A stretch of DNA of 64,000 nucleotides from Eledone cirrhosa (taxonomy: Eukaryota). This document shows, piece after piece, positions 15,525-51,900 of this stretch. The stretch spans positions 203,484,001 to 203,548,000 of the forward strand of contig OZ024743.1 in the NCBI GenBank assembly GCA_964016885.1, read 5' to 3'. Under the pieces are notes generated by a model that did not search any database, had not been told where the DNA came from, and saw only the letters and a program-made list of their open reading frames with translations. The position numbers and the translations under genes are program-made. The first letter of the stretch is position 1. Each line of letters starts with the position of its first letter.

Positions 15525-17075
15525 CATCATCATCATCATCATCAGGTTTAGCGTCCGTGTTCCACGCTTGCATGGGTTTGGACGGGGGTTTTCCCACTTG
15601 AGGCAAGAGTGGTTGTCTTGCTCGCATAGGACTGTCTGGCGGGTTTTCTACTGTTGGATGCCCTTCCTAACACCAACCACATTTACAGTGTGGGGCTGGG
15701 AGGTTTTTACCGTGTTGCCTACACGGCCACATTACAGCGTGGACTGTCTGGCGGGTTTTCTACAGCTGGATGCCCTTCCTAACACCAACCACATTTACAG
15801 TGTGGGGCTGGGAGGTTTTTACCGTGTTGCCTACACGGCCACATTTACAGCGTGGACTGTGTGTTTTTTGTCGTGACACCTACACGATCTCATTTGTTTC
15901 GGCCTGGATGTTGTGGGACCAACATAACTTTACATTGAAAGGGGCGGTGTGGGTGGGGTGGAGGTGGTGGGACGGGGGTGTGTTTTGATAGAGATGCCTA
16001 CTGACTGTAGTAGGTTTTTACTTTGTATTTAGGTAAGGCGGGTCTTCTCTATTACTGAGTACCGCCAAAGGTCTCGGTCCAGTGACATTGTCTTGGAGAG
16101 GTGTAAGCGTGTGAGGTCGGAATTTATCAGCTCGTCCCATGTTTTTCTGGGTCTGCCTACTCCGTGGTTACCGTCTATCTTTATTGCCCTGCACTTTGTT
16201 ATACAGCTGTCGTCTTTCATGCGCATCACGTGACCGTACCAACGTAGCCTTCTCTCGAGTAAACAACATCTGATCCCTCTTATTTCTAATTTTTTCCTTA
16301 GTTCGTTTATGCTTTGCCGTTCACGTATATTACTATTGCACATCCAGCGGAGCATGCAAGCTTCGTTCCTCTCTAGTCTGCGTATATCCTCTGCACACAA
16401 TGCCCAGGTCTCACTGCCATGCAGCATTGCTGTTCGTATGCAGGCATCGTATAACCTGCCTTTCATTTTTAGGGAGAACCCTCTAGCGGCTAATAGTGGT
16501 ATAAGCTCTCTGAACTTTTTCCATCCAGTTCTGACTCTAGCTACTGTACTTTCAGAGCACCCTCCCCCACTGCTGATTTTGTCACCCAGATAACGGAAGC
16601 TGTCCACTATTTCTATAGAACCCTCTGCGCAGTTGAAGGAGCTAGTATTTTGTGGGCACTTGTTGCTACTTATTGCACCAGAGCACCGGCCACATGTAAA
16701 ATCTATGTTCTTAGTTAGCTTACCTGTGATCCCACTACATCTTTTATGCACCCATACTTTGCATTTGGGACATAAAATGGAGTTTCTACCTACGCCTTTC
16801 CTACACACTGAGCATGGCCATTTCCCAGATGGGACCGCCGCCTTATTTTCTTTCCTACAAACTAGAACTTTAGTCTTAGCCAGGTTAATTTTAAGGCCTT
16901 TTGATTCAAGGCCGTGCTTCCATGTTTGGAATTTCTTCTCTAGTTCGGTCATTGATTCAGCTATGAGCGTTAGATCATCTGCGTATAGGAGTTCCCATGG
17001 GCAGCCGGTCTTGAACTCCTCTGTTATAGCCTGAAGGGCAATAATAAATAGTAGGGGGCTAAGAACAGAGCCCTG
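15525..17075 (-). mobile_element. 5'-truncated RTE-clade LINE with (GAT)n tail
   Basis: QGSVLSPLLF, LLYADD, GRPRKTW; 3' UTR with a short tandem duplication; (ATC)n on + at 15525-15545. Confidence 0.92.
16029..17075 (-). CDS. RTE reverse transcriptase C-terminal part with embedded PHD-like finger
   Basis: ORF 16029..16952 extends upstream through YADD. CSVC...SILCPKCKVWVHKRC...FTCGRC fits C4HC3. Confidence 0.85.
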   Translation of the reverse strand, partial: QGSVLSPLLFIIALQAITEEFKTGCPWELLYADDLTLIAESMTELEKKFQTWKHGLESKGLKINLAKTKVLVCRKENKAAVPSGKWPCSVCRKGVGRNSILCPKCKVWVHKRCSGITGKLTKNIDFTCGRCSGAISSNKCPQNTSSFNCAEGSIEIVDSFRYLGDKISSGGGCSESTVARVRTGWKKFRELIPLLAARGFSLKMKGRLYDACIRTAMLHGSETWALCAEDIRRLERNEACMLRWMCNSNIRERQSINELRKKLEIRGIRCCLLERRLRWYGHVMRMKDDSCITKCRAIKIDGNHGVGRPRKTWDELINSDLTRLHLSKTMSLDRDLWRYSVIEKTRLT

Positions 17076-17146
17076 ATATATATATATTGGTAAACGGAAT
17101 AGAAAATGCTGACAAATTGTTCACAGTGAAAAATAAAAAAATAAAA

Positions 17147-18596: not shown

Positions 18597-19512
18597 CGAG
18601 GTGTGTCAGAAAAGTTCCAGGACTGATGTCACAAAAGATTTATTTCAAACCCAAACTTCACACTAAGAGTTTTCTCCTTCAAAGTAATCCCCCTGGAGTC
18701 TAATGCACTTTCCCATCCTTTTCTGCCACGCTTGCATGCTCTCCTGAAAGGATTCTTCTGGGATCCTCCGCAGTTCCATCGTCACGGCTTTTTTGATGTC
18801 GTCCACGTCTTCAAAACGGGTCCCCTCCCGGTCGTACTCGAAGATCCATGACTCATCACCGGTGATGACTGTCCCTAGCAAGTATGGTTCGGTTTCAATA
18901 CGTTTGAGGATGTCTTGGCACACTTGTAATGCCTCGACCCTTCTGGTCCTCGTTCAGCAGTTTTGGCACCAACTTCGCGCAGATTTTCCGCATGTCCAAA
19001 TCTTCAGTGAGAATCTTCCAGACGCTGTCCCGATTCATACCCAGCTCATTTGCCATCGGTCGAACAGTCAGCCGACGATCGCTACGCACCATCTGCCTGA
19101 CGCACTCAACGTTGACCTCAGTCCTGGTTATTGAGGGCCTTCCGCTCCTGGGGTCATCTTCCACGTTCTCGCGTCCTTCTTTAAACCTCTTGCACCACTC
19201 AAAAACACGTGAGCGTGACATCGTCTCATTTCCATACACTTGCTGCAGCAACCCCAGTGCTTCTGACGGAGTTTTCCCCAACCGTACCAGAAACTTCAAG
19301 TTTGTTCGTTGCTCTGTGCTCATTGCTTGACGACCTGAAATATAGGACTGTATATAAAATTATGAAGAAAAAAGTTTGATCGTTGCAGAGAGCTAAGATT
19401 ACAGTTACATACACCAGGGGGATTACTTTGAAGGAGAAAACTCTTAGTGTGAAGTTTGGGTTTGAAATATATGTTTTGTGACATCAGTTTTGGAACTTTT
19501 CTGACACACCTC

Positions 19513-20312: not shown

Positions 20313-20630
20313 CTCTATCAGACGTGTATAACTTCGCGGAGAAGTTTCCGTTAATTTATGTAAGAAAAAAACGTGAGTTTTTAGTTAAATTTTATATCAT
20401 TGTGTAACTTGACCCCCCGTCTGAACCTTCAGGTGGTGGGTCAACTCATTTTCGCCCCTACAGGGACGGAATATCCATTTAAAAAATTTTTCTCCATCGA
20501 ATCTTGGAAAAAAATATTGTAAAATTTTGATTACGTTATGAACGCTGCGTCCAACGATAATGGTGGTGGAGAGGCGGTAAGACTACAAAGCTCGTAGTCA
20601 ACAACGTCTTCTTCACTAGATACTATAGAG

Positions 20631-22454
20631 ATGGAAAGACAAAATGAAAATAAAAAAACGAATTCACATCCAAACAACACAAATGACACCAAACAGCTCA
20701 ATGACAACAAAAATAACAGCAAAACCAATAATGATGATAAAAGCAACAATGATAACAACAACAAAGAAAAAAATAAAGACAACGCCAATAACACCAGCAT
20801 CAAAGACAACAACAACACCAAGGAAAATACGGATGATACCAACATCGGTGACAACAAGAATAACAACAAGAATAACAACAATAATGACAACACCACCAAT
20901 ACGGATTCCACAAAGAAACCAAAAATCTCCTTTGCGGAGAAAGTTCAAAAGAAAGAACACTTGATATATCTCGACATAACAAATGCTGAACAACTTTTAA
21001 AGGACGCTAAGAGATATGTCACCTTCGAAAAAAATGGTGCTTTCAGCATCAATTCTCCGGTAGAAATTCGCAAGGAAACTGCTCTCAAAACGATAGTTTT
21101 TAGGACAGTTTCCAATTCTACCCGAAAACCAGTCCAATTGTCACAGAAAGATATTGAACTTGTTTTCAAAGATTCAATGAATGATATTGCATTCATTCAA
21201 AGAAGCAAACTTTTTGGGAGTATTTCGGTACTGATGAAGGATCAATTGACGGCCCAAAACTACTCTGTGTCGCCAATTGTATCCAACCTGTACACCTTTT
21301 TCCCTACATACATGGGAAAAAGGACACAAAAGATCAGAATCACAAGTGTCACACCAAAGGTGAACATATGGTGGATACTGTGCGGCTTCATCAATTTTGA
21401 TGAAGACAGAGTACTGTCAGTAGGCAAGTCCCCCAGAAATGTATTCAATGGGACTAGCATTGAAGTTCTGGTGCAAATGAGCCCAGAGCGAATAGCTATG
21501 ATCCCACAGCGTGTACTCCTGGACGGACTTACCTACATAAACCTTTCGGTTGAGGGTAGGCGGCCTTCATGTTACCATTGCTTTAGCAGGGGTCACCTGA
21601 GGGCTTCCTGTCCTAAACTAATGAACCAAAAAAAGGCTCTTCTGCCGACACCCATCAAAACAACACAACCACCAACACCACCACAACAACAACAACACCA
21701 ACACACAAAAATAACCACAACAAACACAGTCCCACCCAACCTCACTCCACCTAAAACCACTGCAAAATCACATACAGACACAACAGCTTCCCAAGACATA
21801 CCCCTCCCCAATCACACAGACGATACAACAGATGAGGCTATCTCGCCATCACCCAGTGAAGACGAGGGAGAACCCCATCGCTCGAAAAGAAAGAAAAGAC
21901 ATCACAAAAGCAAAAAACCAGCAAACACTACCACAAACATACAGCCACCAACACAAACAACAAAAATATCACAAACAAAACTCCCACCTCCTGAAAACAG
22001 AATACCTACAACAAAACGAAAGCACACACAAGAACTACAGACAAAAACAAACACAACACAAGAAAATTACACTTTCACTTACATAAACACTGAAAACAAA
22101 ACACTAATGGAGACCATCACGAACGACCCTTCGGTTTTCACCGAAGGGAAAACTTTCGCCCACTCTATAAAAAATAGCAAAAAACTGAACCTAAAACTGA
22201 TTAGGGTCCCTATACAAACTTATAGGTCCCTAAAAGAAACATTTGAGAAGGATGTGGGGAATTCCTGCGTGAAACCACTCAACCGCGTCCTTCTCGAATG
22301 CCTCCCCACCCCAGACACCCCCATCCCACCAGACCCCACCCCACCAAACATCTGCGTCCCCACCCCGCCGGAAACCACCACCCATCCAGACAACCCCTTC
22401 AACACCCCCATGGAAATCGTGTGGCCTGGTCCCCAGGAGGCGAAGGGTGAGTGA
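20631..22454 (+). CDS. Tx1-like ORF1 (gag-like; Asn-rich N-term, zinc knuckle, Pro/Thr-rich C-term)
   Basis: 607-aa ORF containing CYHCFSRGHLRASC (CX2CX4HX4C); homologous ORF in copy 2. Confidence 0.88.
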   Translation: MERQNENKKTNSHPNNTNDTKQLNDNKNNSKTNNDDKSNNDNNNKEKNKDNANNTSIKDNNNTKENTDDTNIGDNKNNNKNNNNNDNTTNTDSTKKPKISFAEKVQKKEHLIYLDITNAEQLLKDAKRYVTFEKNGAFSINSPVEIRKETALKTIVFRTVSNSTRKPVQLSQKDIELVFKDSMNDIAFIQRSKLFGSISVLMKDQLTAQNYSVSPIVSNLYTFFPTYMGKRTQKIRITSVTPKVNIWWILCGFINFDEDRVLSVGKSPRNVFNGTSIEVLVQMSPERIAMIPQRVLLDGLTYINLSVEGRRPSCYHCFSRGHLRASCPKLMNQKKALLPTPIKTTQPPTPPQQQQHQHTKITTTNTVPPNLTPPKTTAKSHTDTTASQDIPLPNHTDDTTDEAISPSPSEDEGEPHRSKRKKRHHKSKKPANTTTNIQPPTQTTKISQTKLPPPENRIPTTKRKHTQELQTKTNTTQENYTFTYINTENKTLMETITNDPSVFTEGKTFAHSIKNSKKLNLKLIRVPIQTYRSLKETFEKDVGNSCVKPLNRVLLECLPTPDTPIPPDPTPPNICVPTPPETTTHPDNPFNTPMEIVWPGPQEAKGE

Positions 22455-22487
22455 TCTCTTTTCCTCTTTTAACTTTTCAGCACCAAC

Positions 22488-25400
22488 ATGGCCAATATAA
22501 GAGTTGGATGTGTGAACGTACGCGGCCTGGGGATGCCCTGGAAACAGGGCAAACTCTTAAACGACCTCAGGTCGCACAGTTTGGATGTGGTAGCCATTTG
22601 CGAGTCCAGGATCCACGGCGAGCGACAGCTGGCCCCCATCTTCGATGACTTTGAGATCTACGCATCTCTCTGTCAACCGGGGGGTGGGGGAGGAGTTGCC
22701 GTTTTGCTGCGGAAACACCTGGGCCTCGTAACACAGACGGTACATCTGGACCCGGAGGGTCGACTGGTGGTCCTAGACCTTGACGGTAGTGAAGGTGGAG
22801 CCTTCAGGCTGGTGGCCGCATATGCCCCATCCGGGACACCGCGGCCAGACTTCTTCAAACGTCTAGAGACTTTTCTGGGAACGTCCCGCTCCTTGCTTTT
22901 AGTGGGGGACTGGAATGGAATCCTAGATGCACGTTGGGACTATGTGGGAGCATGTCCCGAAAAAGGGGGGTGTAACAGCCTCAAACAGTTAATCGACCGA
23001 TTTGACCTGGCCAATAGATATCGACTAGATTTTCCGACTGCGCCACTGTGGACGTGGAGTAATCGTAGCGGAACATCTAGATCGTACCTAGATAGGGTTC
23101 TAGTTAGAAATAAGGATAGGGACATGTTAAGCTGTCCACAAATGTTCATGGTTGCCCATTCAGATCACAAACTAGTGACCTGCATGGCCAACCTTGTTGG
23201 AACCCATAGACAAGGACCCGGCTACTGGAAGCTGAACTTGTCGTTACTGACAAGCAAAGCCTACAGTAGACGGATTAGCACTTTAGTTAAACAGCACTTG
23301 ACAGGGGCCATTGTCAACAACAGATGGTGGTACTCTCTCAAGAGGGCAGTTAGATTAGACTCGATAGTTTTTAGTAAAGAATTAGCGTTAGATAGAAATA
23401 GAACCGAGAAGGAACTGGTAGATAAAGTAGAAGAGGCAATTAGAAGTGGCAACGTAGCCAGCGTGCTAGCAACGAGAACGGCCTTGGACCAGTTCTTCGA
23501 CGCAAAGCACGAGGGCTGCGTTGTCAGAAGCAAAATACGTGCTCTGGGAAACGAGGGAGCCAAAGCTGTTAGCTGGGCCCGAGTGACGGAGGCAAAAAGT
23601 GGCAACAAGTCCACGATTCGGTCTTTGAAGGACCAAAACGGACGCGTGATACGTGAGCCGAAGCAGATGTGTTTGCTTTTCAGCGGCACTTTGCTCGGCT
23701 GTTCGGGGGGAGCGGGGCGCCGGGAGAGGCTATGGATTTCGGTCCATACCTCGACGGCCTACCGCGACTCTCGGACAGTGAGGCGAAGTTCTGCGAAAAG
23801 CCGATTTCAGCCACTGAGATAGGGGACGCGCTGAGCCAATGCGGCAAACGCAAATCTCCAGGTCTCGACGGTCTACCCTACGAATTTTACGTAGCAATGC
23901 CGGACTTATTCTCCGGTCTCCTGGAAGCGGTCTACTGCAACTGGCAACAGAACGGGAGAATTCCCAGTTCTGTAACCGGGGGCGTGGTCACACTAATCAG
24001 GAAGGACGAGAATAAGGGGGATGATATAGGCAACTTCCGGCCCATAACTCTGCTAAACACAGAGTTACAGATTTTGGCCAAGGTGTTGGCAAAGAGGCTG
24101 GCGCTTGTCGTCGAGAACCTGGTGGGAGAAGCGCAGACATGCGCGATCCCGACCAGGTCCATACACGACAACCTCCACCTCATGCGATACATCATAGAGA
24201 GGGTAGGGTGTAAACCCGACTTCGGTGGGGCCCTGATCAACTTGGATCAGTCTAAGGCTTTCGATAGGGTTGACCATCGTTACCTGGATGCGGTGCTCGA
24301 GGCGGCAGGCTTCGGACCCGTGTTCAGGGGCTGGATTGCTGCAATGCACAACAGCAACATCTGCTCAAGGGTCAAGGTGAACGGTTACCTCTCGGAGCCG
24401 TTCCATATTACGCGATCCATTCGACAGGGATGCCCTCTCTCCTCCCTTCTGTACGTACTGACTCTCGAGCCACTACTGCGGAAGCTGGAGCTATTGCAGG
24501 GCATCCCTCTGGAACCGGGACTGCGGAAAGCGGCGTCGGCCTACGCCGACGACGTGACAGTAATGGTGTCGAGCGCCTCGCAAATTGAGGAAGTCGGCAC
24601 CTTACTAAAGGAATACGAAAGTCTCACAGGAGCGAAGCTGAACCGGGACAAGTCCATCGGCTTGCAACTCGGATCGTGGAGAGGCAGACCGATGCCTTCC
24701 GATGGCGTCGTCGGACGCTGGACGGAAGGACCGGTAAAGCTGCTCGGGGTCTGGTGTGGTCCGGACCTCCAGGTGGAGAAGAACTGGAACGAAGTGACGG
24801 CCAAGGTGTTTGCACTCACCCAGAAGTGGGCCGAGTGCAAACTATCCTTGAAAGGTCGAGCGGAGGTGGCGAACACTTTTATAGCGTCCGCCATCTACTA
24901 CCGCTTGACCGTCGTGCCTTGCCCAGCCAAAACGCTCGTCAAAATGGAGCGCGCCCTCTTCCGATTCCTTTGGAAGAGGCGGGCTCCTTTGGTAAGAAGA
25001 TCCATCTGCTGCCAACACCCTTCTAACGGAGGGCTAGGGATGCCGTGGTTGACGATGCGCAAACACGCGCTCAGGCTGCGGCATCTCTACGTATTCCTCA
25101 CCGGACAACCGGTGTGGGCCCCGTTCGTGAGGCGAGCCTTCCCACGACTCGTCTCGCTGACCGAGCTGCAGTCCTGGGTCAAGCAGAGACCGAGGAAAAT
25201 GGGCAACTGGCACATCGAATGTGCTCAGGCGCTCACAGCCCTCTGGCAGGCGGACCCGGCGATCAGTGGAGACTCCACTTCGTCATTCTATAGAGGGTTG
25301 GTCCGCAGCAAGTGCGACGACGCGCTCGGTGAAACTCTAGGCGTGGAGGAAGATGAACTGGCCAGTCTGTTCGGTAGGACCTTCCGCCCGGGACCGATGG

Positions 25401-25924
25401 ACAACTTCCAAAAGTCCCTGGCCTGGCAGTGCTACCGAGGAGCTCTACCAGTTCGAGACAAGCTCTACAGACATGGGCGCCCGGGAAGGGACCCTGCAAA
25501 AAAGATATGTCCGAGGTGCGTGCGAGACGAAGAAACCGTCGCGCACGCATTCATACACTGCCCGGGCGTCACTAACCTGTGGGGCTATGTAGAACGACTA
25601 TTGTCGCGGGTGGGACCAATCCAGTTGACCACCGAGTCCATTGTCATGATCAAACCGCCACCCTCCTTCAAAAACGAAGGAGAGGCGGTTTTCCTTTGTG
25701 TGATAGCTATGGCGAAAGAGGTTGTATGGTGGACAAGGTTGAAAGGGCTGAGGTCAGACACCTTTCTCTCCGGCCAACAACTGATTCTTTTTTTCAAATA
25801 CCACTTTGGAAGAAGAATCAGGATGGAGAGAGAGGTGCTGTACCCCAGCAAGTTTTATGAAAGGTGGGTGAAAGTGGCGAGAATGGCCCGAGTGAATGGG
25901 CCTTCTCTCTATATCAGCCTGTAG
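22488..25924 (+). CDS. Tx1-like ORF2: AP endonuclease + RT + C-terminal zinc finger (one frameshift near 23670-23690)
   Basis: NVRGL, GDWN, YLDR, SDHK, GYWKLN, KSPGLDGL, DQSKAFDRV, RQGCPLS, YADD, CPRC..ET..HAFIHC. Confidence 0.93.
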
Positions 25925-26346
25925 GTTGAGGAAAAGGAGGAGGAGAGGAAAGGAGTACAAGCTCTTCGTACTCCTGGAGATGAGGGTTGCACATTTTTTT
26001 TCGGGGGTATGTGTTACCCATATAAACTGTCTCCCTCTATTGGGGAAAATCGACTAACTTTTAAATTCCATCTGTGATAACATTTTACACGTTTTTATTG
26101 TATGTAAACTTCCCCCTTTGTATTTGTCCCCTTCTTTTGTGCCCCTGTGGCTAATAAAGAAATATATCTATCTATCTATCTATCTGTCTATCTATCTATC
26201 CATGTCTCTCCTTTCCTGGCTCATATTTTCCCCTATTTCTTCTTTTTCTGTATAAAAGTACAATATATCGTACCAGGAAAAGTCACACAGACGCACACAC
26301 ATACATACGCACATATACCCACACTCATATATACATATATACATGC

Positions 26347-26393
<47 letters not shown>

Positions 26394-26917
26394 CGTGTAT
26401 ATATATATATATACATACATATATTTGTGTCTTTGTGTGTTGCAGGTGTGTGTGTGTATAGAAGGCTGAGTGGCTGGATGGATGGAAATACTATTGCGAA
26501 CACAATATTTTGAAAATTGTGTGATTTACAGAGTATATACAGAGGTGGTGGTGCTGGAGATGGGGGCATGACCACCCCCCAGTAATTAAATTCACCTCCC
26601 CAAACTACTAAAACACACATCTATTTGCATATGCGCTACAATTTATGTACATGTTATATTTATCGCATACCGAAGTTTTTTATATCTTGGTTGTAATTTG
26701 ATAATATATTATATTAACTTTCATAGTAAATTCTTTTGTCATGTCATAACTTTTTCTCCACATATCATTATTTGCCAATTAACTAGTATGTGTATTTAGA
26801 GACAGATTTCATAGGTCATTTTTCTATAATCACTTCATAATTATTGAAAGCTATAAATATTATATGACCTGCTTGGACTCAAATTGTATTTTCTGACCAT
26901 TTTAGAGCGCAAAGAGC

Positions 26918-28870
26918 TAGAGTATAGTGTTAATTGATATAGAGAGGGGTATTGGAAGAGAATACGGTGTAGTAGGTATGGTGAGATGGAGAGTATAGTG
27001 GTAATTGATATAGAGAGGGGTATTGGAAGAGAATACGGTGTAGTAGATATGGTGAGATGGACAGTATAGTGGTAATTGATATAGAGAGGGGTATTGGAAG
27101 GGAATACGGTGTAGTAGATATGGTGAGATGGAGAGTATAGTGGTAATTGATATAGAGAGGGGTATTGGAAGAGAATACGGTGTAGTAGATATGGTGAGAT
27201 GGAGAGTATAGTGATAATTGATATAGAGAGGGGTATTGGAAGAGAATACGGTGTAGTAGATATGGTGATATGGAGAGTATAGTGTTAATTGATATAGTGA
27301 GGGGTATTGGAAGAGAATACGGTGTAGTAGATATGGTGAGATGGAGAGTATAGTGGTAATTGATATAGAGAGGGGTATTGGAAGAGAATACGGTGTAGTA
27401 GATATGGTGAGATGGACAGTATAGTGGTAATTGATATAGAGAGGGGTATTGGAAGAGAATACGGTGTAGTAGATATGGTGAGATGGAGAGTATAGTGGTA
27501 ATTGATATAGAGAGGGGTATTGGAAGAGAATACGGTGTAGTAGATATGGTGAGATGGAGAGTATAGTGGTAATTGATATAGAGAGGGGTATTGGAAGAGA
27601 ATACGGTGTAGTAGATATGGTGAGATGGAGAGTATAGTGTTAATTGATATAGTGAGGGGTATTGGAAGAGAATACGGTGTAGTAGATATGGTGATGTGGA
27701 GAGTATAGTGGTAATTGATATAGAGAGGGGTATTGGAAGAGAATACGGTGTAGTAGATATGGTGAGATGGAGAGTATAGTGTTAATTGATATAGTGAGGG
27801 GTATTGGAAGAGAATACGGTGTAGTAGATATGGTGAGATGGAGAGTATAGTGGTAATTGATATAGAGAGGTGTATTGGAAGAGAATACGGTGTAGTAGAT
27901 ATGGTGAGGTGGAGAGTATAGTGGTAATTGATATAGAGAGGGGTATTGGAAGAGAATATAGTGTAGTAGATATGGTGAGGTGGAGAGTATAGTGGTAATT
28001 GATATAGAGAGGGGTATTGGAAGAGAATATGGTGTAGTAGATATGGTGAGGTGGAGAGTATAGTGGTAATTGATATAGAGAGGGGTATTGGAAGAGAATA
28101 CGGTGTAGTAGATATGGTGAGATGGAGAGTATAGTGGTAATTGATATAGAGAGGAGTATTGGAAGAGAATACGGTGTAGTAGATATGGTGAGATGGAGAG
28201 TATAGTGGTAATTGATATAGAGAGGGGTATTGGAAGAGAATACGGTGTAGTAGATATGGTGAGATGGAGAGTATTGTGGTAATTGATATAGAGAGGTGTA
28301 TTGGAAGAGAATACGGTGTAGTAGATATGGTGAGATGGAGAGTATAGTGGTAATTGATATAGAGAGGGGTATTGGAAGAGAATACGGTGTAGTAGATATG
28401 GTGAGGTGGAGAGTATAGTGGTAATTGATATAGAGAGGGGTATTGGAAGAGAATACGGTGTAGTAGATATGGTGAGGTGTAGAGTATAGTGGTAATTGAT
28501 ATAGAGAGGGGTATTGGAAGAGAATATGGTGTAGTAGATATGGTGAGGTGGAGAGTATAGTGGTAATTGATATAGAGAGGGGTATTGGAAGAGAATACGG
28601 TGTAGTAGATATGGTGAGATGGAGAGTATAGTGGTAATTGATATAGAGAGGGGTATTGGAAGGGAATACGGTGTAGTAGATATGGTGAGGTGGAGAGTAT
28701 AGTGGTAATTGATATAGAGAGGGGTATTGGAAGAGAATACGGTGTAGTAGATATGGTGAGATGGAGAGTATAGTGGTAATTGATATAGAGAGGGGTATTG
28801 GAAGAGAATACGGTGTAGTAGATATGGTGAGATGGAGAGTATAGTGGTAATTGATATAGAGAGGGGTATT
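26918..28870. repeat. 71-bp tandem satellite, ~27 copies
   Basis: Unit AGAGAGGGGTATTGGAAGAGAATACGGTGTAGTAGATATGGTGAGATGGAGAGTATAGTGGTAATTGATAT recurs at 26941, 27012, 27083 and onward. Confidence 0.97.
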
Positions 28871-28967
28871 GAAACGGAATGTTGTATGGTAATTATATAG
28901 AGGAGGAGAGCTTGCTGGTAATGTATATAGAGAGGGGGATTCAGAGAGTGTTATGCATGGTAGATAT

Positions 28968-31900
28968 ATATTTCTATTTATTTGCCACCAGGGCATCAAA
29001 GATTGGTACAAATACAAAGGGGGGAGTTTACATACATTTAATAAGACGTGTAAAAAACATATAACAAATTAAATTTAACAATCGACGTCCTCAATAGGGA
29101 GGGGCGTTGACATGGGTCGCACACACACCCGAAAAATTGTGCAACCCTCCTCTTCAGGAGCACAAAGAGCGGGTGCTTCCTTCCTCTTCTCATTCTTCTC
29201 CTCTCTCACCTACAGGCTGATATAGAGAGAAGGCCCATTCACTCGGGCCATTCTCGCTACTTTCACCCATCTTTCATAAAACTTGCTGGGGTAGAGTACC
29301 TCTCTCTCCATTCTGATCCTTCTTCTAAAGTGGTACTTGAAAAAAAAGACCAGTTGTTGGCCGGAGAGAAAGGTGTCTGACCTCAGCCCTTTCTTCAACC
29401 TTGTCCACCATACAACTTCTTTCGCCATGACTATCACACAGAGGAAAACCGCCTCTCCTTCGTTTATGAAAGGAGGAGGCGGTTTGATCGTGACAATGTT
29501 CTCGGTGGTCAACCTGATTGGTCCCACTTGCGACAGTAGTCGTTCTACATAGCCCCAGAGGTCATCAACGTCCGGGCAGTGTACGAATGCGTGTGCGACG
29601 GTTTCCACGTCACGCACGCATCTTGGACAGATCTTCTTCGAGGGGTCCCTACCCGGGCGCCCGTGTCTGTAGAGATTGTCCCGAACGGGTAGAGCTCCTC
29701 GGTAACATTGCCAAGCCAGGGACTTTTGGAAGTTGTGCATCGGTCCCGGGCGGAAGGTCCTACCGAACAGACTGGCTAGCCAGCTCGTCTTCCTCCATGC
29801 CCAGAGCCTCTCCAAGATTGTCGTCGCACTTACTGCGCACCAACCCTCTTTAGAATGTTGAGGTTGAGTCTCCACTGATTGCCGGATCCGCTTGCCAGAG
29901 GGCCGTGAGCGCCTGGGCACATTCAATGTGCCAGTCGCCCATTTTTCTCGGTCTTTGCTTGACCCAGGATTGCAGCTCGGTGAGTAAGACGAGTCTCGGA
30001 AAGGCTTGCCTCACAAACAGGGCCCACACCGGCTGACCGGTGAGGAATACCTGGATGTGCCTTAGCCTTAATGCGTGTCTACGCATCGTCAGCCACGTCA
30101 ACCCCAGCCCTCCGTTCGAAGGGTGTTGACAGCAGATGGATCTTCTCACCAAAGGAGCCCGCTTCTTCCAAAGATGTATCGCATGAGGTGGAGGTTGTCG
30201 TGTATGGACCTGGACGGGATTGCGCATCTCTGCGCTTCTCCCACCAGGTTCCCGATGACAAGCGCCAACCTCTTCGCTAACACCTTGGCCAAAATCTGTA
30301 ACTCTGTGTTTAGCTGAATTATGGGCCTGAAGTTATCTATGTCATCCCCCTTGTTCTCGTCCTTCCTCACCAGCGTGACTACGCCCTTGGTCACAGAACT
30401 GGTAATTCTCCCGTTCTGTTGCCAGTTGCAGTAGACCGCCTCGAGGGCACTGGAGAACAAGCCCGGCATCGCTACATAAAGTTTGTATGGTAGACCATCG
30501 AGACCCGGAGATTTGCGTTTGCCGAATTGGCTCAGCGCTTCCCCTATTTCAGCGGCTGAAATCGGCCTCTCGCAGGACTTCGCCTCCCCGTCCGAGAGCC
30601 GCGCCAGACCGTCGAGGTATGGACCGAAATCCATGGCCCCCTCCGGCCCTCCGCCCCTCCCGAACAGTCGTGCAAAGCGCCGTTGAAAGGCCGCGCTCAT
30701 CCGCTCAGGTTCAAGGATCACGCGTCCATCCTGGTCCTTCAAAAACCAAATCGTGGACTTGTTCCCACTTTTTGCCTCTGTCACTCGGGCCCAGCTAACA
30801 GCTTTGGCTCCCTCGTTACCCAGAGCACGTATTTTACTCCTGACAACGCAGCCCTCGTGCTTCGCATCAAAGAACTGGTCTAGGGCCGTTCTTGACGCCA
30901 GCACGCCGGCCACGTTGCTACTCCTAATCGCCTCTTCTACTCTATTTGTTAATTCCCTTTCACTTCTATTCCTATCTAATGCTAATTCCCGACTAAAACC
31001 TATCGATTCTATTCTAATTTCTCTCTTGAGAGAGCCCCACCACCTGTTGTTGACAATTGCCCCCGTCAAACGCTGCTTAACTAGTGTGCTAATCCGCTTA
31101 CTGTAAGCTTTGTTTGTCGGTAAAGACAAGTTTAGCTTCCAGTAACCGGGTCCCTGTCTATGAGTTCTATCAAGGTTGACCACTCCGGTCACCAACTTGT
31201 GATCCGAATAGTCAACAATGAACATTCGTGGACAGCTTAATATGTCCCTATCCTTATTTCTAACTAGGAACCTATCTAGGTACGACCTAGATGTTCCGCT
31301 ACGATTACTCCACGTCCACCGTGGTACAGTCGGAAAATCTAGTCGATATCTATCGGCCAGATCAAATCGGCCGATTAAACGTCCCTACATAGTCCCAACG
31401 TGCATCCAGGATACGATTCCAGTCCCCCACTAAAACAAGGAGCGAGACGTTCCAAGGAAATTCTCCAGGCGTCGGAAGAAGTCCGGTCGCGGTGTCCCAG
31501 ATGGGGCATACGCTGCCACCAGCCTGAAAGCTCCACCTTCACCACTGCCGACGTCTAAAACCACCAGTCGACCTTCCGAGTCCAGGTGTACCTTCTGTGT
31601 GGCAAGACCCAGGTATATTCGTAGCAGAACGACAACCCCACCCCCACCCCTCAGCTGACAGAGAGATGCGTAGATCTCAAAGTCGTCGAAGATGGGGGCC
31701 AGTTGGCGCTCGCTGCTGATCCTGGACTCGCAAATAACCATTATATCCACTCTGTGCGACCTGAGGTCATTTAAGAGTTTTCCCTGTTTCCAGGACATCC
31801 CGAAGCCGCGTGCATTCACACACCCAACCCTTATATTGGCCATGTTGGTGCTGAAGAATTAAAAAGGAAGAGGAAAGGAAATTACTTACCTTTTCGTCTC

Positions 31901-32610
31901 CTGGGGACCAGGCTGCACAATTTCCATGGGGGTGTTGGAAGGGTTGTTTGGTGGGGTGGTGGTTTGTGGTGGGGTGAGGACATCATTGTGTGGTGGGATT
32001 AGGGTGTTTGGTGGGGTGTGGGTGTCTGGTGTGGGGGTGGGGAAACATCTCAATAGGACGCTGTTATGTGGTTTGGTGCAATTGGCCCCACATGCATTGG
32101 ATGGTTCTTTTTTCAATGTTACATAGGTTTCCGTTGGGACCCTAATCATCATTAGCTGCGGTTTGTTCGCTGCGTAGGTGAAAGTGATCCTTTCGGTTTC
32201 CACCGAAGGGTTATTTTCTATCGCTTTCATCAACGTTTTATTGTTCTTGTTAATGTATGTATAGAGTTTTTGTTGTGTTGTGTTTGTTTTTGTTTGTTGT
32301 TCTTGTGCGTGTTTGCGTTTTGTAGTACGTGTTATGGTTTGGGGAGGGGTGGGTTTTTTATTTGTGATGTTTGTTCTGTTTGTGCTGGTGGTTGTGTGTT
32401 TGTGGCATTTTTGTTAATGTGGTGCCTTTTTTTTCCTTTTCACCTGTTGAAAGGGTTCTCCCTTGTCGTCACTGGGTGACGTTGATACGGAGTCCTCTTC
32501 CAATGTTGTTGGGGAGGGGTATATTTTGGGGTTTTGTTGTGGTTGCTTTTGTATTTGTTTTAGGTGGGGAGGTGTTGGGTGGAACAGTGTTTTGTGTTGT
32601 TATTTTTCCG

Positions 32611-32646
<36 letters not shown>

Positions 32647-33936
32647 GGTGGTGGTGGTGGTGGTGGTGTTGGTGGTGGTGGTGGTGGTGGTGGTGGTGGT
32701 GGTGGTGGTGGTGGTGGTTGTGTTGTTGTGTTCGGGGTTGGCAGAAGAGCCTTTTTTTTTTACTCGTTAATTGTGGACAGGCAGCCCTCAGGTGACCCCT
32801 GCTTAAGCAGTGGTAACATGGGGGCCGCCTTCCCTCCACTGAAATGTTTGTATACGTTATCCCGTCCAGAGGCACGTGATATGGGATATTCGCTATTCGT
32901 GCTGGGCTCATTGACACCAGAACTTCTACGGTGGTCCCACCAAATACACCTCCGGAGTACTTTCCTATTGAAATTGTCTTGTCTTCGTCAAAGTCAATGA
33001 TTCCACATAGTATCCACCAAATATTTACATTTGGTGTGATACTCATTATTCTTATTCTTTGTGTCCTTTTTCCCCTGTATGTGGGGAAAAAGGTGAAGCC
33101 GGGGGACACAATGGGTGATACCGAGTACTTTTGAGCTGTTGACTGGTTGTTCATTAGCACCGAAATGCTACCAAATAGTTTACCTTTTTGTATGAAGGTT
33201 AAGTCCTTCATTGCATCTTTTAGAACCAGCTCAATTTCATTTTGTGATAATTGAGCTGGTTTTCTTGTTTCGTTCGATATTGTCCTGAAAACCACAGTTT
33301 TCAGGACAGTCACTCTACGTAATTCCTGTGGAGAATTGATGCTAAAAGCACCGTTTTCGCCAAAAGTCACGAATTGTTTTGCGTCTTGTAATAGTTGTTT
33401 AGCATTTGTTATGTCTATTGGCGTGTATAGTTCGTTTTTTTTTACAGTCTGTGCGAATGTTGTTTTGGTGTTGTTGTCTTTTTTGTTGCTGTCACTGTTG
33501 GTAATATTGTTCATGTTTTCCTTGGTGTTGCTATTGTTGCAGTTGTTGGTTGTGGTGTTATTGTCATTGTTCTTGTTGTTGGTACTGGTATTATTTACCG
33601 GGTTTTGTTTCGTGGTTTCGATATTTTTAACGTTTTTCGATGATGCGAGGGGGGAAGGCTGCAAGTTTTGTACTCCTACCTTCCCTCCACCACTTTTCTT
33701 AGTGGGCGTGGCACTCACGACAGTGTGCGAGGTGGAAATGGCATCCATTGCCACCAAGTCTACAGTTTTGAGATGAAAATTGAAAATTTCGCCCAAGAAA
33801 GGGGCGAAAATTAGTTGACTCAACGTCTGACGGCCCAGGCAAGGGGTTAAACTAAACAATGTTATTAAATTGAGCAATAAACTCACAGTTTTTTTTACAA
33901 TAATCCGTAAAAATCCGGAGCGAAGTAAATCACGTC
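28968..33936 (-). mobile_element. Tx1/L1-like LINE (copy 2), RT core deleted, frameshifted
   Basis: ORF1 ~31886-33748 (CYHCLSRGHLRAAC), ORF2 from 31843. Junction near 30172 joins NLHLMRYI to the WKKRAPLV region, so QGCPLS/YADD are lost. Confidence 0.92.
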
Positions 33937-34820
33937 TATATCAAGTGGTAATTGATATAGAGAGGGGAATAGTTTGGTAGTAATTGATATAGAGAGGGGG
34001 GTTGTGAGAGATTGACTTGTAGTAGATGTAGAGAGGGGTAGATTTCAATGATTGTAGATATAGTGAGGGGCTTGGGAAAGATAAATATTGCCAAATATAG
34101 AGAGAGGGATTCAGAAAGACAGTGTCGTAAAAATATAGAGGGGGGGAGTTAGAGAGGAGGAGAGTTGGGTAGTACTCTCGGGTCCCAAATAATAGGAGGG
34201 GTTGGAATGGGGATCCTTGGAAAATCGGTAATTGTATAGTGTACGTTCGTAAATATGGGATTTTTTGCTGTTGTTGTTGTTCTTTTTGACGTTTATGATG
34301 TTTTTTTTTTATGTAAAATAAAATCAGTATTAGATTCTCCAGCTGCTGTATCAATATTAATCACTTACAATAAACTTTCGCCGGAGATAGATTAGCAAAA
34401 TTTAATAACCTGGGGAGGGGGGGGGGGATACAAACTGAAAAATTAATAAGCGTTGGGGGACGATTATTCAAGACCTAAGCGTACGTGAATTATTGACGGA
34501 CGTAAAAAAGGAAAACGCAATACCGAAGTATAGCTTAAATATTCATTTATTATGGCTAAGTGTTGAGCCTTGTTACTCTGGAGTTTCACCTGTGTAGTCC
34601 ACTGGATCATCATATAAGAATGGTGATCCTGTGGGTACACAGGTGACACTTTAGAGTATCAAAGCACATCAATATCCATAATAAATGACTGTGTATATAT
34701 ATATAAATATATATATATATATAGGAGACGAATAAATTTAGTATAATACCAGTTTCTTACCAAATGGAAAGAAGCTCAATATATTAACCATTTAGGAAAG
34801 GATAGAGAGCATAGTTTTTT

Positions 34821-45579: not shown

Positions 45580-48500
45580 TTGGTTGTATACCAACAACAC
45601 CTCAGTATGCAGGCTGGAGCACTCGACGAAGTGCGCAGGTTGGTTTCGTTACTCCGGAGTAGTGTAAAATAAAGTTAAATAAAAGTCAAATGATTAAAAT
45701 TTAGCTTCGTTTATTACTGCTATATATATTTCAGTGACAGCCATCTTTGGCTGTGACCTCTTCAGGCAGTTTGAATTAGTATGGTATAGACAAGTACATA
45801 TGTTATTTAGGTGTATGATATTGTCAATACTCTGATATGCCCAGTTCCTTTTTGGGTTGTTAATTCACTGGGAAACTGGAGTCATATGAATTCAAACAAA
45901 CGAATTTTCGTGTCACAGGTCCCCTTCTCCTCTCATTGGTCAGTTATTAGAACATTCCTCATTCTAAGTGTTGTTATTGTTGGAGTTAGCTTAAAAATTG
46001 ATAAAATGGTAGAAGGGACAAGGTGTTAAAGGAACAAAATAACAAAAAAAGTGTCAAACTTCCCATTGTTCAGTTCTGAGAGCATTCCTCAGTCAGAAGT
46101 CTATAGAATTCTTTTAGGGGTGAGGCTCCCTGTAGTGTTTTTGCCTGCTATTATTCAGTACATTTGACCTCCACCATTATTTTGGTACTGTTGTTGTTGT
46201 AGTGGTCAGCTTATATCTTGCTGCTGCTAACAATTTAGAAGTATCCAGTTTGTGTTTTTTCTTCATCCCTCCCGCCACCATCGTAGTGGTGTTGGGAGGG
46301 GGGGGTCTTTCATGAAGATGAAGAAATATAAGGTAATAAATGAAGAAAACAGAAAATAAATAAATAATATAATAAAATAAAATAATTAATATAATTTGTG
46401 TAATTTGAAAATAAATAAATAAATAGAGAATAAAGAATAAAGAGTAAATGAGAGATTGGTGAAAAAGTAATGATAATGTATATGGAGAAGTGAGAAATAA
46501 TGTAGGATAAAGTGTGTGTGTGTGTGCTATAACCAATCTCAAGGTCAGAATATGTTGGATAGATTGGTATGATACAAGATGTTAAGATGAGATATTCAAT
46601 GTGTTTGTGTTATAATCAATCTCAACTTAAAATAAATATAAGGTGATACAGTGAAGAGGGCAGAAAACAAATAAATTAATAAAGAGAAATCAAGATTTAA
46701 GATTGGAACTTGAAAGTCAGAAATCTGGTAAATTAAAAGTGTTTGTGTTATAGATGTTGGCCAAATTATTATGGCTGTGTCCGATTCTATCTCTAGGCTA
46801 TCATGGTGTCTGCTCCGCCTGGGTTGTTCCCTGTGGCTTGAGGGGAGTTCACAACCTAGGGTGTTGTTATTGCCCATATAGCTTGAGGGTGGTCTGGCCG
46901 AGAGGTGTTTTCATGTTCTGTAGAAGTCCCTATAGCTTGAGGGGAGTTCACATCTTCTTGTGTTGCTACTGTCCATATATTTTGAGAAAGGTCCCGGCTC
47001 TAAGGTGTCTGCATGTCCCGAAGAACTCGGTTCTGAGGTTTATCAGGCCGCTTCCACCTCTTAGTATCTCGAGGGTCTCGTTCAGGCATAGTTTGCATAT
47101 GCAAGATCCCCCTTTATCGGGTGGTACTTTCCTGATTATGTACCAGGCCAGAGAGTATGGGGTCCTGTCCAGCTTAAGCTTCCAGATCAGGTCGGAGAGA
47201 GCTGTGCTTTTCCTTTTGGCCTCCTTCTTGAATGAATGGCGATGGTTGTACCAGCGGTCCTTAAAGCTCGTTGATGTGGCTCCTATGTAGAGGTGTTCGG
47301 AGTTGGGGGTTTTAACCCTACAACCGTACACTAAGTTCTTCTTGAGACATTCATTACCAAGGGGGCATGATTCGGGGTTTCTGCAGTTGCATAGGGTGGT
47401 CGGCCTCTGCGTGCCTAGATTAGGGTTCTCATTATGTGTTACATGTTGGTCTTCCCCCATGCTCGGTGGGGGGTCCTTGGGTCTGTTTGTGTTTCTTGGG
47501 TGGGCTCTGGGTCCCCCCTTCCCTCCTTTCACATGGTTCTGCTAAGTGTTTGTATTGCCATCTTCTGGTTGTGTGTGGTTTTTAAGCCTACTTCTGTTGA
47601 TGCTAGCTATGTGTTGGTCCAAATTTCTCGTGGTGGAATACGAAAGCTTCACAGTGTGTCTGTTGAAGATCCTGTGGTATCTGTGGTCCCTCGGGAAGCA
47701 TTTGTCAAGTGCTCCAAAGAATAATCGGGCCAAGATTTTCTTTAGGGCCGCTGAGTAGGGTGGGTTGTACCACGTGATTTGTCGGTGTCTCCTCCTATAC
47801 GTGTGGGTTGGGGGCTTCGTGATTTGTTGGAGATTTGTTGGGTTGCTGGTGGTTTCCGCATTGTTGCTTCCCTTTTGGGCTCTATACTTTTTGTTATCTT
47901 CGCGGCCCGGATTTGTGGGGTGGTTGTTGTCCGCCCCGGGGGATCCATGGTGGGGTGGTCGCCCCCCCCCCCACGTGTCCTGCGGTTGGGGTTGTCCGTC
48001 CTGGGGTAGTTAGCGTCGCGTCTGAGACTGCTACTCATATTGTGCTCCATCTCGTGGTCAAGCGCACTAGTCCCCACCGCCCGTGTGGTGGTGTCTGGTA
48101 CATGGTGCCTATTTGATTCTGCTCTGCCTGTATTGTTGGGGTTCGCCCTCCCCCCTCTGGCAACGCGGTTGTGGTTGTCTGTTGGGCTATCCACCTCTCG
48201 GCTTTTCGGACTATATGTTATATTTTGTCCATGTGCCGCCTTCTTTAGAGCTGCGTTGTAATATTCCGCGTGGTTGTTGAATATTTCCTTACTTGCGGAC
48301 AGGCTGGAGATCCTGTCCGAGACACTCTTCACCACTGCCTTGGTTATGGATCTAGGGTGGTTTGATTTGGCGTTAACATATACGAGTTTCTCGTTGGGCT
48401 TGTGGTAGGGGTAGTATTGCTCGGTGTTCAGGTTTAGGGTGGTGTCTAGGAAGTTAACTACCTTCCTATTTGGGTCTATTTCTATGCTGAGCCCCTGGTT

Positions 48501-48950
48501 CTTAAAGAAATGGCGAATACGCCTCCTCATACCCTCCAACATATTGGTGTTGTGGTCATGTACTGTGAATAGAGCATCGTCACGATATAATCCGCCGCCC
48601 AGGCAGGGGATTTCATCTTTTATCTGCTTCAGCAGGTAGAGCCCAACCAGGTCCGTTACCTGCGCTGAGTCGCTGGAGCCCATCGTGATGTCAAAGTTAT
48701 TTGGCCAATCACTCCTGGTCCAAAGGTCTCCATCGAAGCGGATTAAGGTCTGTCTTGCGACGTGGATGATGCTCACCTCCTCTCGGGTTAGGTCCGTATT
48801 GGACATCGCTAAAAATAGGGCCTTATTAAGTACTATGGGTGAGATTGAGGAGTAGTAGCTTGCGAAGTCCAGTTGTATAAAGCTGGTCCTACTTTTCTCA
48901 TGCAGTATTTTGAACCACTCTATTACTTCTCTCGTGCATGACCATTGACC
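45580..48950 (-). mobile_element. 5'-truncated Penelope-like element A (RT + GIY-YIG + pLTR)
   Basis: FIQLDFASYYSSI, FDITMGS.DSA, GLYRDD, NFLDTTL, YHKPN, SNHP; CNCR...CPLGNECL, LVYGC..YIGAT, CKLCLNE; broken by stops and frameshifts. Confidence 0.92.
45716..45770 (-). ncRNA. Minimal type I hammerhead in the PLE-A pLTR
   Basis: ACUGC CUGAAGA GGUCACAGCCA aaga UGGCUGUCACU GAAA UAUAUA UA^ GCAGU. Confidence 0.82.
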
Positions 48951-51900
48951 ACGGCTAATTCTGGACTGAATGAAAATTTATTCTGGTATTTAAATAGCCG
49001 AGCTCATCAAGGGGTAATTCCATATATGGTCAAAGAGATAATCACCAGGATTGGTCACATCACAAGTTAGTAGTAAATCTGTGATGGCAAATTGGTAGGG
49101 GAAGGGGTAGCTGAACCTGCCGGTAGGAGAAAAAGGGAGAGGGGGTGGAGTAGACACATTCATGCGTTGGTAGTGCCGGCTACAGCTGGGTGTGAGGTCA
49201 AAGAAGATACTGGGGAGGGGGAGGGGGAGGAAGTCGAAACGGTAAGTAGAACAATGTAGGGTAAAACTATAAAAAGTACTGAGAGAGAGAAAAAAAAATA
49301 AGCAAAGTCTGGTTACTAAGACTTAAGTCTCTCGTTATTGCTAGGCTAAAGAAATACATAAATAAATAAATAAATAAGTGAATAAAAGAATGGATAAATA
49401 AATTTAAAAAATATATATATAATGAAGAATAAAAAATAAATAAAAATAAACTAGGTGGGACGGAAATAAAGGGACCCTTATACGAGGTATAAGTGTGTGT
49501 ATCGTACGGTGACGCGTCAACAAAGGGGGGGGGGGGGGGCAAAATACTAAAGAGACTACCACGAAATAATAAAGGTTTCTACCCCAATCACAGGGCCAGC
49601 AACCACCCAGAGCAAGAAAGTAAACTAGTCGAGAATATCATTCAGGGTCCCGCAAAAAAATACTCGTGCTAACTCTAAGGGTACCGCCACGAAACAAAAA
49701 GTCTTATACAAGCTACATGAAAGATCGTACGAAGTAAAAGTAAAGAACGGAAAATTAATACAGAACTCCCCCCCCCCAAAAAAAAAGGGAAAAAGAGGAA
49801 AGAAATACTGGATAAACGAGAAATTAAAGCAAAGATGCTACTAAGAAATATAGAAGGCACGGAAAAAAGGGCAGCGGTCGGAGAAGGGTGCAAGTATCCG
49901 AGGTCTAACACCTCTGCTATAAAAAGCGGAGTCAGCCAAATCTATCATAGAATAGGGGAGGGGGTGGTGGTGCTGAAGCTACAAGGGACCGAGGGGCTAC
50001 CTCGGGTGGGCGAGAAAAAGACGACGACAAAGAAAGGGAACTGGGGTAGAAGGACTAGGGAGGGATGGGGGAAGGAGGAAATATAGAGGAAGCGATAAAA
50101 AAAGTAAAATAAGATCTTACGTCCCCATTGGCAAGCATACAAAATAGGCAAGTGGGGTGTTATAGCCCTATTCTACCCCCCCCCCCCCCGGTCATTATGG
50201 GGTTTGAGGTACTCATATTGTGCTCCATCTCGTGGTCAAGCGCACTAGTCCCCACCGCCCGTGTGGTGGTGTCTGGTACATGGTGCCTATTTGATTCTGC
50301 TCTGCCTGTATTGTTAGGGTTCGCCCTCCCCCCTCTGGCAACGCGGTTGTGAGTGTCTGTTGGGCTATCCACCTCCCGGCTTTTCGGACTATATGTTATA
50401 TTTTGTCCATGTGCCGCCTTCTTTAGAGCTGCGTTGTAATATTCCGCGTGGTTGTTGAATATTTCCTTACTTGCGGACAGGCTGGAGATCCTGTCCGAGA
50501 CACTCTTCACCACTGCCTTGGTTATGGATCTAGGGTGGTTTGATTTGGCGTTAACATATACGAGTTTCTCGTTGGGCTTGTGGTAGGGGTAGTATTGCTC
50601 GGTGTTCAGGTTTAGGGTGGTGTCTAGGAAGTTAACTACCTTCCTATTTGGGTCTATTTCTATGCTGAGCCCCTGGTTCTTAAAGAAATGGCGAATACGC
50701 CTCCTCATACCCTCCAACATATTGGTGTTGTGGTCATGTACTGTGAATAGAGCATCGTCACGATATAATCCGCCGCCCAGGCAGGGGATTTCATCTTTTA
50801 TCTGCTTCAGCAGGTAGAGCCCAACCAGGTCCGTTACCTGCGCTGAGTCGCTGGAGCCCATCGTGATGTCAAAGTTATTTGGCCAATCACTCCTGGTCCA
50901 AAGGTCTCCATCGAAGCGGATTAAGGTCTGTCTTGCGACGTGGATGATGCTCACCTCCTCTCGGGTTAGGTCCGTATTGGACATCGCTAAAAATAGGGCC
51001 TTATTAAGTACTATGGGTGAGATTGAGGAGTAGTAGCTTGCGAAGTCCAGTTGTATAAAGCTGGTCCTACTTTTCTCATGCAGTATTTTGAACCATTCTA
51101 TTACTTCTCTCGTGCATGACCATTGACCACGGCTAATTCTGGACTGAATGAAAATTTATTCTGGTATTTAAATAGCCGAGCTTATCAAGGGGTAATTCCA
51201 TATATGGTCAAAGAGATAATCACCAGGATTGGTCACATCACAAGTTAGTAGTAAATCTGTGATGGCAAATTGGTAGGGGAAGGGGTAGCTGAACCTGCCG
51301 GTAGGAGAAAAAGGGAGAGGGGGTGGAGTAGACACATTCATGCGTTGGTAGTGCCGGCTACAGCTGGGTGTGAGGTCAAAGAAGATACTGGGGAGGGGGA
51401 GGGGGAGGAAGTCGAAACGGTAAGTAGAACAATGTAGGGTAAAACTATAAAAAGTACTGAGAGAGAGAAAAAAAAATAAGCAAAGTCTGGTTACTAAGAC
51501 TTAAGTCTCTCGTTATTGCTAGGCTAAAGAAATACATAAATAAATAAATAAATAAGTGAATAAAAGAATGGATAAATAAATTTAAAAAATATATATATAA
51601 TGAAGAATAAAAAATAAATAAAAATAAACTAGGTGGGACGGAAATAAAGGGACCCTTATACGAGGTATAAGTGTGTGTATCGTACGGTGACGCGTCAACA
51701 AAGGGGGGGGGGGCAAAATACTAAAGAGACTACCACGAAATAATAAAGGTTTCTACCCCAATCACAGGGCCAGCAACCACCCAGAGCAAGAAAGTAAACT
51801 AGTCGAGAATATCATTCAGGGTCCCGCAAAAAAATACGCGTGCTAACTCTAAGGGTACCGCCACGAAACAAAAAGTCTTATACAAGCTACATGAAAGATC

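Follow-up and report, generated by a model that had tools for sequence, protein, structure and literature searches.

The window analysed here, 64,000 nucleotides (nt) of the Eledone cirrhosa genome (contig OZ024743.1, positions 203,484,001 to 203,548,000), carries two related long interspersed nuclear elements (LINEs), each with two open reading frames (ORFs): copy 1 (plus strand) and copy 2 (minus strand). The original prediction was that a 39-nt stretch between ORF1 and ORF2 of copy 2 is a micro-intron whose removal fuses the two frames. Comparison across the 3.0-Gb genome, of which the window is part and from which all genome matches were drawn, indicates that the 5' splice-donor-like motif at the end of ORF1 is under a constraint of its own while the acceptor is not conserved, and that the sequences on either side of ORF2 are complementary, lineage by lineage, in computed duplexes. 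We read the 39 nt as an inter-ORF spacer, whose donor would bind U1 on the nascent RNA without being spliced and would then be masked by a predicted long-range helix; we hold this reading with about even confidence. The features of copy 2 are as follows.

28975 to 33940 (ends approximate), minus strand: copy 2, a dead two-ORF L1-group (Tx1-like) LINE of subfamily B
31886 to 33748, minus strand: ORF1 of copy 2, frameshifted, with a CCHC knuckle in its 5' piece
29210 to 31843, minus strand: ORF2 of copy 2 (APE endonuclease, reverse transcriptase (RT) and zinc motif, domains taken from an intact relative), broken and with an internal deletion
31884 to 31892, minus strand: conserved 5' splice-donor-like motif AAG/GTAAGT over the ORF1 stop
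31851 to 31889, minus strand: the 39-nt stretch proposed as an intron, taken here to be the spacer between the ORFs
31838 to 31901, minus strand: predicted 5' arm of the helix (ORF1 end, donor, spacer and ORF2 start), with a duplex of -49.8 kcal/mol with its own 3' arm
29156 to 29218, minus strand: predicted 3' arm of the helix (ORF2 stop and purine-rich start of the 3' untranslated region (UTR))
33881 to 33886, minus strand: 5'-proximal donor-like motif GTGAGT, approximately 55 nt from the 5' end of copy 2

The layout of copy 2 is as originally described. Its minus strand reads AAG/GTAAGT, with the GT at 31889 and the ORF1 stop codon TAA (31888-31886) within the motif; downstream of the donor come a pyrimidine tract, a TTCAG ending at 31851, seven bases and the ORF2 ATG at 31843-31841. 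Excision of the 39 nt would indeed join ORF1 to ORF2 in frame, and in subfamily B the stretch has the GT...AG ends and the pyrimidine tract of a micro-intron. The same layout was present in all 30 loci that best matched copy 2, which are similar by selection, and is thus a feature of the subfamily. Copy 2 itself is called dead because its ORF1 and ORF2 are in pieces; approximately 775 nt present in copy 1 (24194-24967) are also missing from it. A tandem array of 71-nt units with a core that is 96-99% identical occupies 26777-29064, directly past the 3' end of copy 2, and sequence resembling the array is also found on its other flank (33940-34180). Copy 2 may therefore have inserted into a 71-nt satellite.

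Copy 1 allows the same junction to be read in a second subfamily.

20320 to 26170 (ends approximate), plus strand: copy 1, subfamily A, with ORF1 intact and one frameshift in ORF2
20373 to 20378, plus strand: 5'-proximal donor-like motif of copy 1
22447 to 22480, plus strand: donor-to-CAG stretch of 34 nt, out of frame if removed
22435 to 22489, plus strand: predicted 5' arm of the helix, -56.1 kcal/mol
25919 to 25976, plus strand: predicted 3' arm of the helix

The claim that copy 1 conserves the arrangement held for the donor, the pyrimidine tract and the CAG, all of which are present, but not for the in-frame fusion. The donor of copy 1 is in phase 1 of ORF1, so that removal of its 34 nt would be out of frame. 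As this state is common to 30/30 best matches of copy 1, it is not the result of decay. Subfamily A is young, with 150/150 scored matches at 97-100% identity, many of them with a full open ORF2.

The wider comparison covers ten lineages, A to J (names assigned here), which were gathered from genome matches and their neighbours rather than by donor-blind sampling of the genome. Their relations were taken from a tree, and the phases of E and G were assigned by homology in decayed copies. Representatives of 10/10 lineages carried the core G/GTRRGT at the end of ORF1. The donor is in phase 2, over the stop codon, in B, C, D, F, H and J, in phase 1 in A (473 codons open) and E, and in phase 0, within coding sequence, in I (520 codons open) and probably in G. 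Its retention in all three phases shows that the stop codon does not account for it. By comparison, just 7/37 fourfold-degenerate sites of ORF2 were invariant across A to I, and lineages A and F were identical at 39/83 such sites. Variation within the donor is limited to positions at which the consensus tolerates it, +3 (A/G) and +4 (A/G); one H copy has GC at +2, and one 5'-truncated F junction (L245) was left out. The hexamer GTRRGT occurs only 3-5 times per element. It was found once at the end of ORF1 in 6/6 lineages scanned, and a second lies 12-65 nt from the 5' end of the element in 5/6. The donor-like motif originally noted in copies 1 and 2 is thus more than chance, and these comparisons indicate that, as a putative U1-binding site at the end of ORF1, it is under its own constraint.

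The remainder of the proposed intron is not kept in the same way. Spacer length varies from 28 to 47 nt. An AG precedes the ORF2 start in 4/10 lineages (A, B, C and G) and would be in frame in B, C and probably G, and D, E, F, H, I and J have no AG ahead of the ORF2 ATG. Conservation of GT, AG and phase had been proposed as a check on the micro-intron, and it came out divided: the GT is kept in 10/10 lineages, but the acceptor does not accompany it, and the phases 0, 1 and 2, with A out of frame, do not preserve an ORF1-ORF2 fusion. Past the start codon, an AG in the ORF2 frame is found within 20 nt of the ATG in 8/10 rows, although not in I. Family F has an intact ORF1 (approximately 700 amino acids (aa)) and ORF2 (1,139 aa), and 150/150 of its matches are at 98-100% identity, yet its spacer is without an AG in 29/30 copies examined. 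This argues against the further suggestion that a subgenomic ORF2 mRNA is spliced at this CAG. Trans-splicing to the spacer CAG was also considered, and was rejected because the AG is not conserved.

Two of the lineages have peculiarities of their own. The ORF2 of lineage I begins with ATA rather than ATG in 3/3 copies (L096 minus strand, L134:8741 and L238:4252), overlapping the ORF1 stop, which may reflect non-AUG reinitiation or a family moved in trans. Lineage G (L115:6954) has an ORF1 end like that of the other lineages and an ORF2 that groups with F; an exchange of ORF1 between families may have taken place.

Spliced RNA in which ORF2 is still encoded is expected to mobilise itself in cis, and spliced copies should therefore be present in the genome. 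In human L1, splicing is rare, yet approximately 2% of copies are reported to be spliced (PMC5860796). The unspliced junction pattern gave 1,200 genomic matches. The first 100 junctions listed, sorted by eye, comprised 42 A-type, 23 B, 22 C, 12 D and 1 E, and 76 of the 100 fit stricter flanks, which by extrapolation makes approximately 900 copies testable, approximately 430 of them from B and C. The intronless copies that the original prediction had proposed to look for did not appear: set against the 1,200 unspliced junctions, a search for shortened spacers yielded four small deletions and no precise loss. No spliced copy with other sequence joined at the donor was found in A to C, nor in F, and none was found for the 5'-proximal donor in the 5' UTR of A. 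Other sequence joined at the CAG gave three matches, all of which are point or small indel changes. Deletions close to the donor, read by eye, have microhomology ends and not splice ends. Three apparent donor splices were rejected as a chance motif inside the ORF1 of another family. These searches cover A, B, C and partly F; each purine-anchored pattern detects approximately half of the possible joins, and a 53-nt variant in F is invisible to the pattern. Three read sets, apparently genomic DNA of one sample (judged from their size and 5'-falling depth) and silent on expression, contained no joint at 31851-31889 and one unrelated 56-nt joint.

Two ORF2 searches returned 30 and 3,158 relatives, as protein only with no DNA context, and no fused ORF1-ORF2 protein was found among the 30 (sizes of 629-2,004 aa searched). 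A search for ORF1 homologs found nothing among 7,993 candidates. Among 37 metagenome loci at 21-52% identity, none of the seven true ORF2 starts listed had, as judged by eye, a donor within 140 nt upstream.

The second feature is the predicted helix around ORF2. Duplexes were computed for cognate pairs from the same element, with the ORF1 end, spacer and start codon on one side and the ORF2 stop and the next 70 nt on the other; lineage G, for which no cognate 3' end was available, was omitted. The cognate duplexes of 11 representatives ranged from -34.6 to -59.2 kcal/mol, that of copy 2 lying between 31901-31838 and 29218-29156. Only 0-12 of 200 dinucleotide shuffles equalled the cognate duplex in 11/11 representatives, and in 10/11 it was stronger than every window of the element's own ORF2. 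Among nine lineages, cognate pairing was preferred over non-cognate pairing to a degree that 6 of 362,880 permutations matched, and two subsets of seven lineages each gave 1 of 5,040 as good; because the lineages are related, these counts overstate independence and should not be taken as probabilities of independent events. In the majority of rows, sequence ahead of the ORF2 start is paired with that surrounding the ORF2 stop, and the final 10-12 bases of ORF1 have pairing partners that are specific to the lineage. This register sets the start of ORF2 beside its stop, and the 3.4-kb ORF2 would thus be looped out. As modelled, the arms complement each other in a lineage-specific manner, and this complementarity would explain the pyrimidine tract. 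The bases opposite the donor vary among lineages and the donor itself does not; pairing alone is therefore insufficient to account for the donor, which has its own constraint.

The reading we favour joins the donor and the helix in one sequence of events. U1 small nuclear ribonucleoprotein on the nascent RNA, bound at the ORF1-end donor, would support full-length transcription by suppressing early cleavage in the A-rich ORF1; in the Arabidopsis element EVD, U1 at a conserved donor is reported to prevent early termination (PMC5580714). The 3' arm does not exist until ORF2 has been transcribed, so the helix could form only afterwards. Once formed, it would cover the donor or its surroundings and block splicing, as RNA structure is described to conceal a donor in foamy virus (PMC3694450). 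A donor together with poly(A) on one RNA is reported to trigger nuclear decay (10.1101/2024.07.23.604837), and masking would let a polyadenylated RNA with an unused donor escape this fate. The fold-back would also draw the poly(A) tail towards the stop codon of ORF1, thereby limiting nonsense-mediated decay (NMD), in line with the reported suppression of NMD by 3' UTR fold-back (PMC2689704). ORF2 would then be translated by termination-reinitiation, as has been proposed for SART1 and L1 (PMC5972666).

Several observations weigh against this account. AWTAAA is present in the 3' half of ORF1 in 4/6 lineages, not in A or D, and ORF2 is without this signal in 5/6, so that it is unclear what U1 would protect. 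Folding of the whole context (approximately 3.8 kb) formed the helix in 2/5 elements (F and H), and not in A, B or I, and the duplex of J is no better than 16/179 windows of its own ORF2. Pairing involves 5-6 positions of the donor hexamer in 7/12 rows and 3-4 in three rows, but none in the B and one D representative and 4/6 in copy 2, so that masking would be incomplete in the subfamily to which copy 2 belongs. To these we add the relatedness of the lineages behind the permutation counts, and the reach of the spliced-copy searches, in which A, B, C and part of F were covered and about half of the joins were visible.

The main alternative is that the donor is truly used, in long-distance splicing to an acceptor located at the ORF2 stop or beyond it; the product would be an ORF1-only mRNA, by the logic of the copia element EVD, and the helix would be a switch or bridge between spliced and full-length RNA. 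We consider this doubtful, though deserving of weight. A TAG/G at the ORF2 stop stands behind a short pyrimidine stretch in 9/10 rows, but F has TAA at this position and no AG. In A, B, D, I and J translation across such a join would end within 1-3 codons; C and E, however, would gain 28-33 residues, and H has no stop within 400 nt. The exon-side bases of the donor and of the candidate acceptor pair together, but the candidate acceptor region lies under the helix, and no AG scores well in all six lineages (best shared minimum of 2.4, versus 5.7-7.0 for the spacer CAG, on a crude self-weighted scale). Copies with ORF1 joined to the 3' UTR were searched for in A to C and F and none was found, although an ORF1-only RNA without ORF2 in cis would be expected to leave few genomic copies. 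A bicistronic RNA already favours ORF1, which we count against the need for such splicing. Were it nevertheless to occur, the LINE would be treating its whole RT gene as a switchable intron: the donor would stay free only as long as transcription had not reached the 3' UTR, and the choice between a spliced mRNA carrying ORF1 alone and a masked full-length template resistant to NMD would then fall to a co-evolving helix of 50 bp spanning 3.4 kb, a tentative scheme that we think improbable on balance.

It is also conceivable, but in our view unlikely, that the helix is the functional unit, serving translation, NMD escape or ribonucleoprotein assembly, and that the motif is only donor-like, being a DNA-level factor site or a reinitiation signal. 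Human L1 offers a precedent, in that its conserved donor lies inside a RUNX3 site and mutation is reported to lower the RNA approximately fivefold (PMC5860796), and the genomic-copy searches saw no splicing here. However, the motif varies only at +3 and +4, where a donor consensus tolerates A or G, and a second donor-like motif stands near the 5' end of the element.

The mini-intron itself, which would fuse ORF1 to ORF2 by removing 34-39 nt up to the spacer CAG or 44-61 nt up to an AG among the first codons of ORF2, is very improbable and is largely refuted for A to C. In its favour, the spacer CAG is the top-scoring acceptor in A, B and C, the frame is kept there in B and C and probably in G, where the stretch is 30 nt, and most rows (8/10) have the ORF2-frame AG shortly after the ATG. 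Against it, the frame is lost in A, six lineages lack an AG ahead of the ATG, I has none in frame at all, the predicted helix accounts for the pyrimidine tract, and a fused RNA would retrotranspose in cis, of which no copy was found in A, B or C. We draw from this case the caution that calling a micro-intron from one subfamily can mislead.

In other respects the element is an ordinary L1-group non-LTR (long terminal repeat) retrotransposon. The ORF2 of an intact relative (1,145 aa) contains APE endonuclease, RT and C-terminal zinc-binding domains (PF03372, PF00078 and PF13966); among solved structures its best relative is human L1 ORF2p (E of 3e-51). The Tx1 label is provisional, taken from the original prediction and from overall anatomy and not from an RT tree with named Tx1 references. 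Runs of TATC or ATT stand at many element ends, uncounted and not distinguished from tails. Copies of different lineages lie head to tail in such runs, often approximately 6 kb apart (L095-L134 and L202-L256), with F in ATT runs and A to E in TATC-like runs. Hairpins are conserved in the 5' UTR at 20410-20478 (plus strand) and 33850-33780 (minus strand), one with a GCCCC/GGGGC stem; they are present in A, B, D and D2, with variants in E and F, and an Rfam search of the 5' UTR gave no match. Elsewhere in the window, duplicated RT and GIY-YIG-like frames at 47742-48977 and 50160-51155 (minus strand), 46966-47541 and 63229-63726 have what we take to be a Penelope-like appearance, and what are presumably fragments of an RTE-like RT and of a mariner-like transposase lie at 16029-17120 and 18895-19359 (both minus strand).

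The question addressed is what lets the RNA of a LINE remain full-length, escape both splicing and decay, and still yield a little ORF2 when a stop codon stands 3.7 kb away from its poly(A) tail. A nine-base donor and a co-evolving helix are compact, mutable signals; in this abundant family, many of whose copies are intact, both could be tested with compensatory mutants.

Several known systems share parts of this arrangement. Kibi and Koshi, described as microsatellite-targeting non-LTR retrotransposons of the Tx1 clade, likewise have two ORFs and an APE endonuclease with RT, and their copies are flanked by microsatellite, as those here may be (PMC4494074, PMC3812793); their repeat units differ from the TATC or ATT runs seen here, and the passages on them in these papers mention neither a conserved donor nor a long-range helix. 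Human L1 resembles the present element in having a conserved, mostly unused donor (PMC5860796) and a short spacer before ORF2 for which reinitiation was proposed (PMC5972666). The L1 donor, however, is reported to be a 5' UTR feature that a RUNX3 site explains and to leave approximately 2% of copies spliced, the SpIREs (PMC5860796), whereas the donor here is at the end of ORF1, inside the predicted helix, and no spliced copy was found. The Arabidopsis Ty1/copia element EVD, with its shGAG system, also has a conserved donor close to where its structural gene ends, and U1 there is described both to splice and to block early termination (PMC5580714). EVD is an LTR element with one polyprotein ORF and a real short intron with a poly(A) site behind it (PMC5580714); by contrast, our element has no conserved acceptor, and its ORF1 has its own stop. 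Of the features of an EVD-type shGAG, the donor at the end of the structural gene is present here, but a conserved nearby acceptor, on a crude acceptor score, and a conserved early poly(A) site are not. We liken the present donor to the major donor of foamy virus, at which U1 binding without splicing is reported to control the choice of 3' end and structure hides the donor (PMC3694450); there the structure is a local one in the LTR of a retrovirus, and here it is a predicted 3.4-kb long-range helix in a LINE. Searches of the open-licence literature, which is without most subscription journals and Repbase reports, turned up no LINE whose ORF1 ends in a conserved donor or whose ORF2 is closed by a helix. 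Within the literature searched, the combination of donor and predicted helix thus appears to be a new feature on an otherwise ordinary L1-group LINE.
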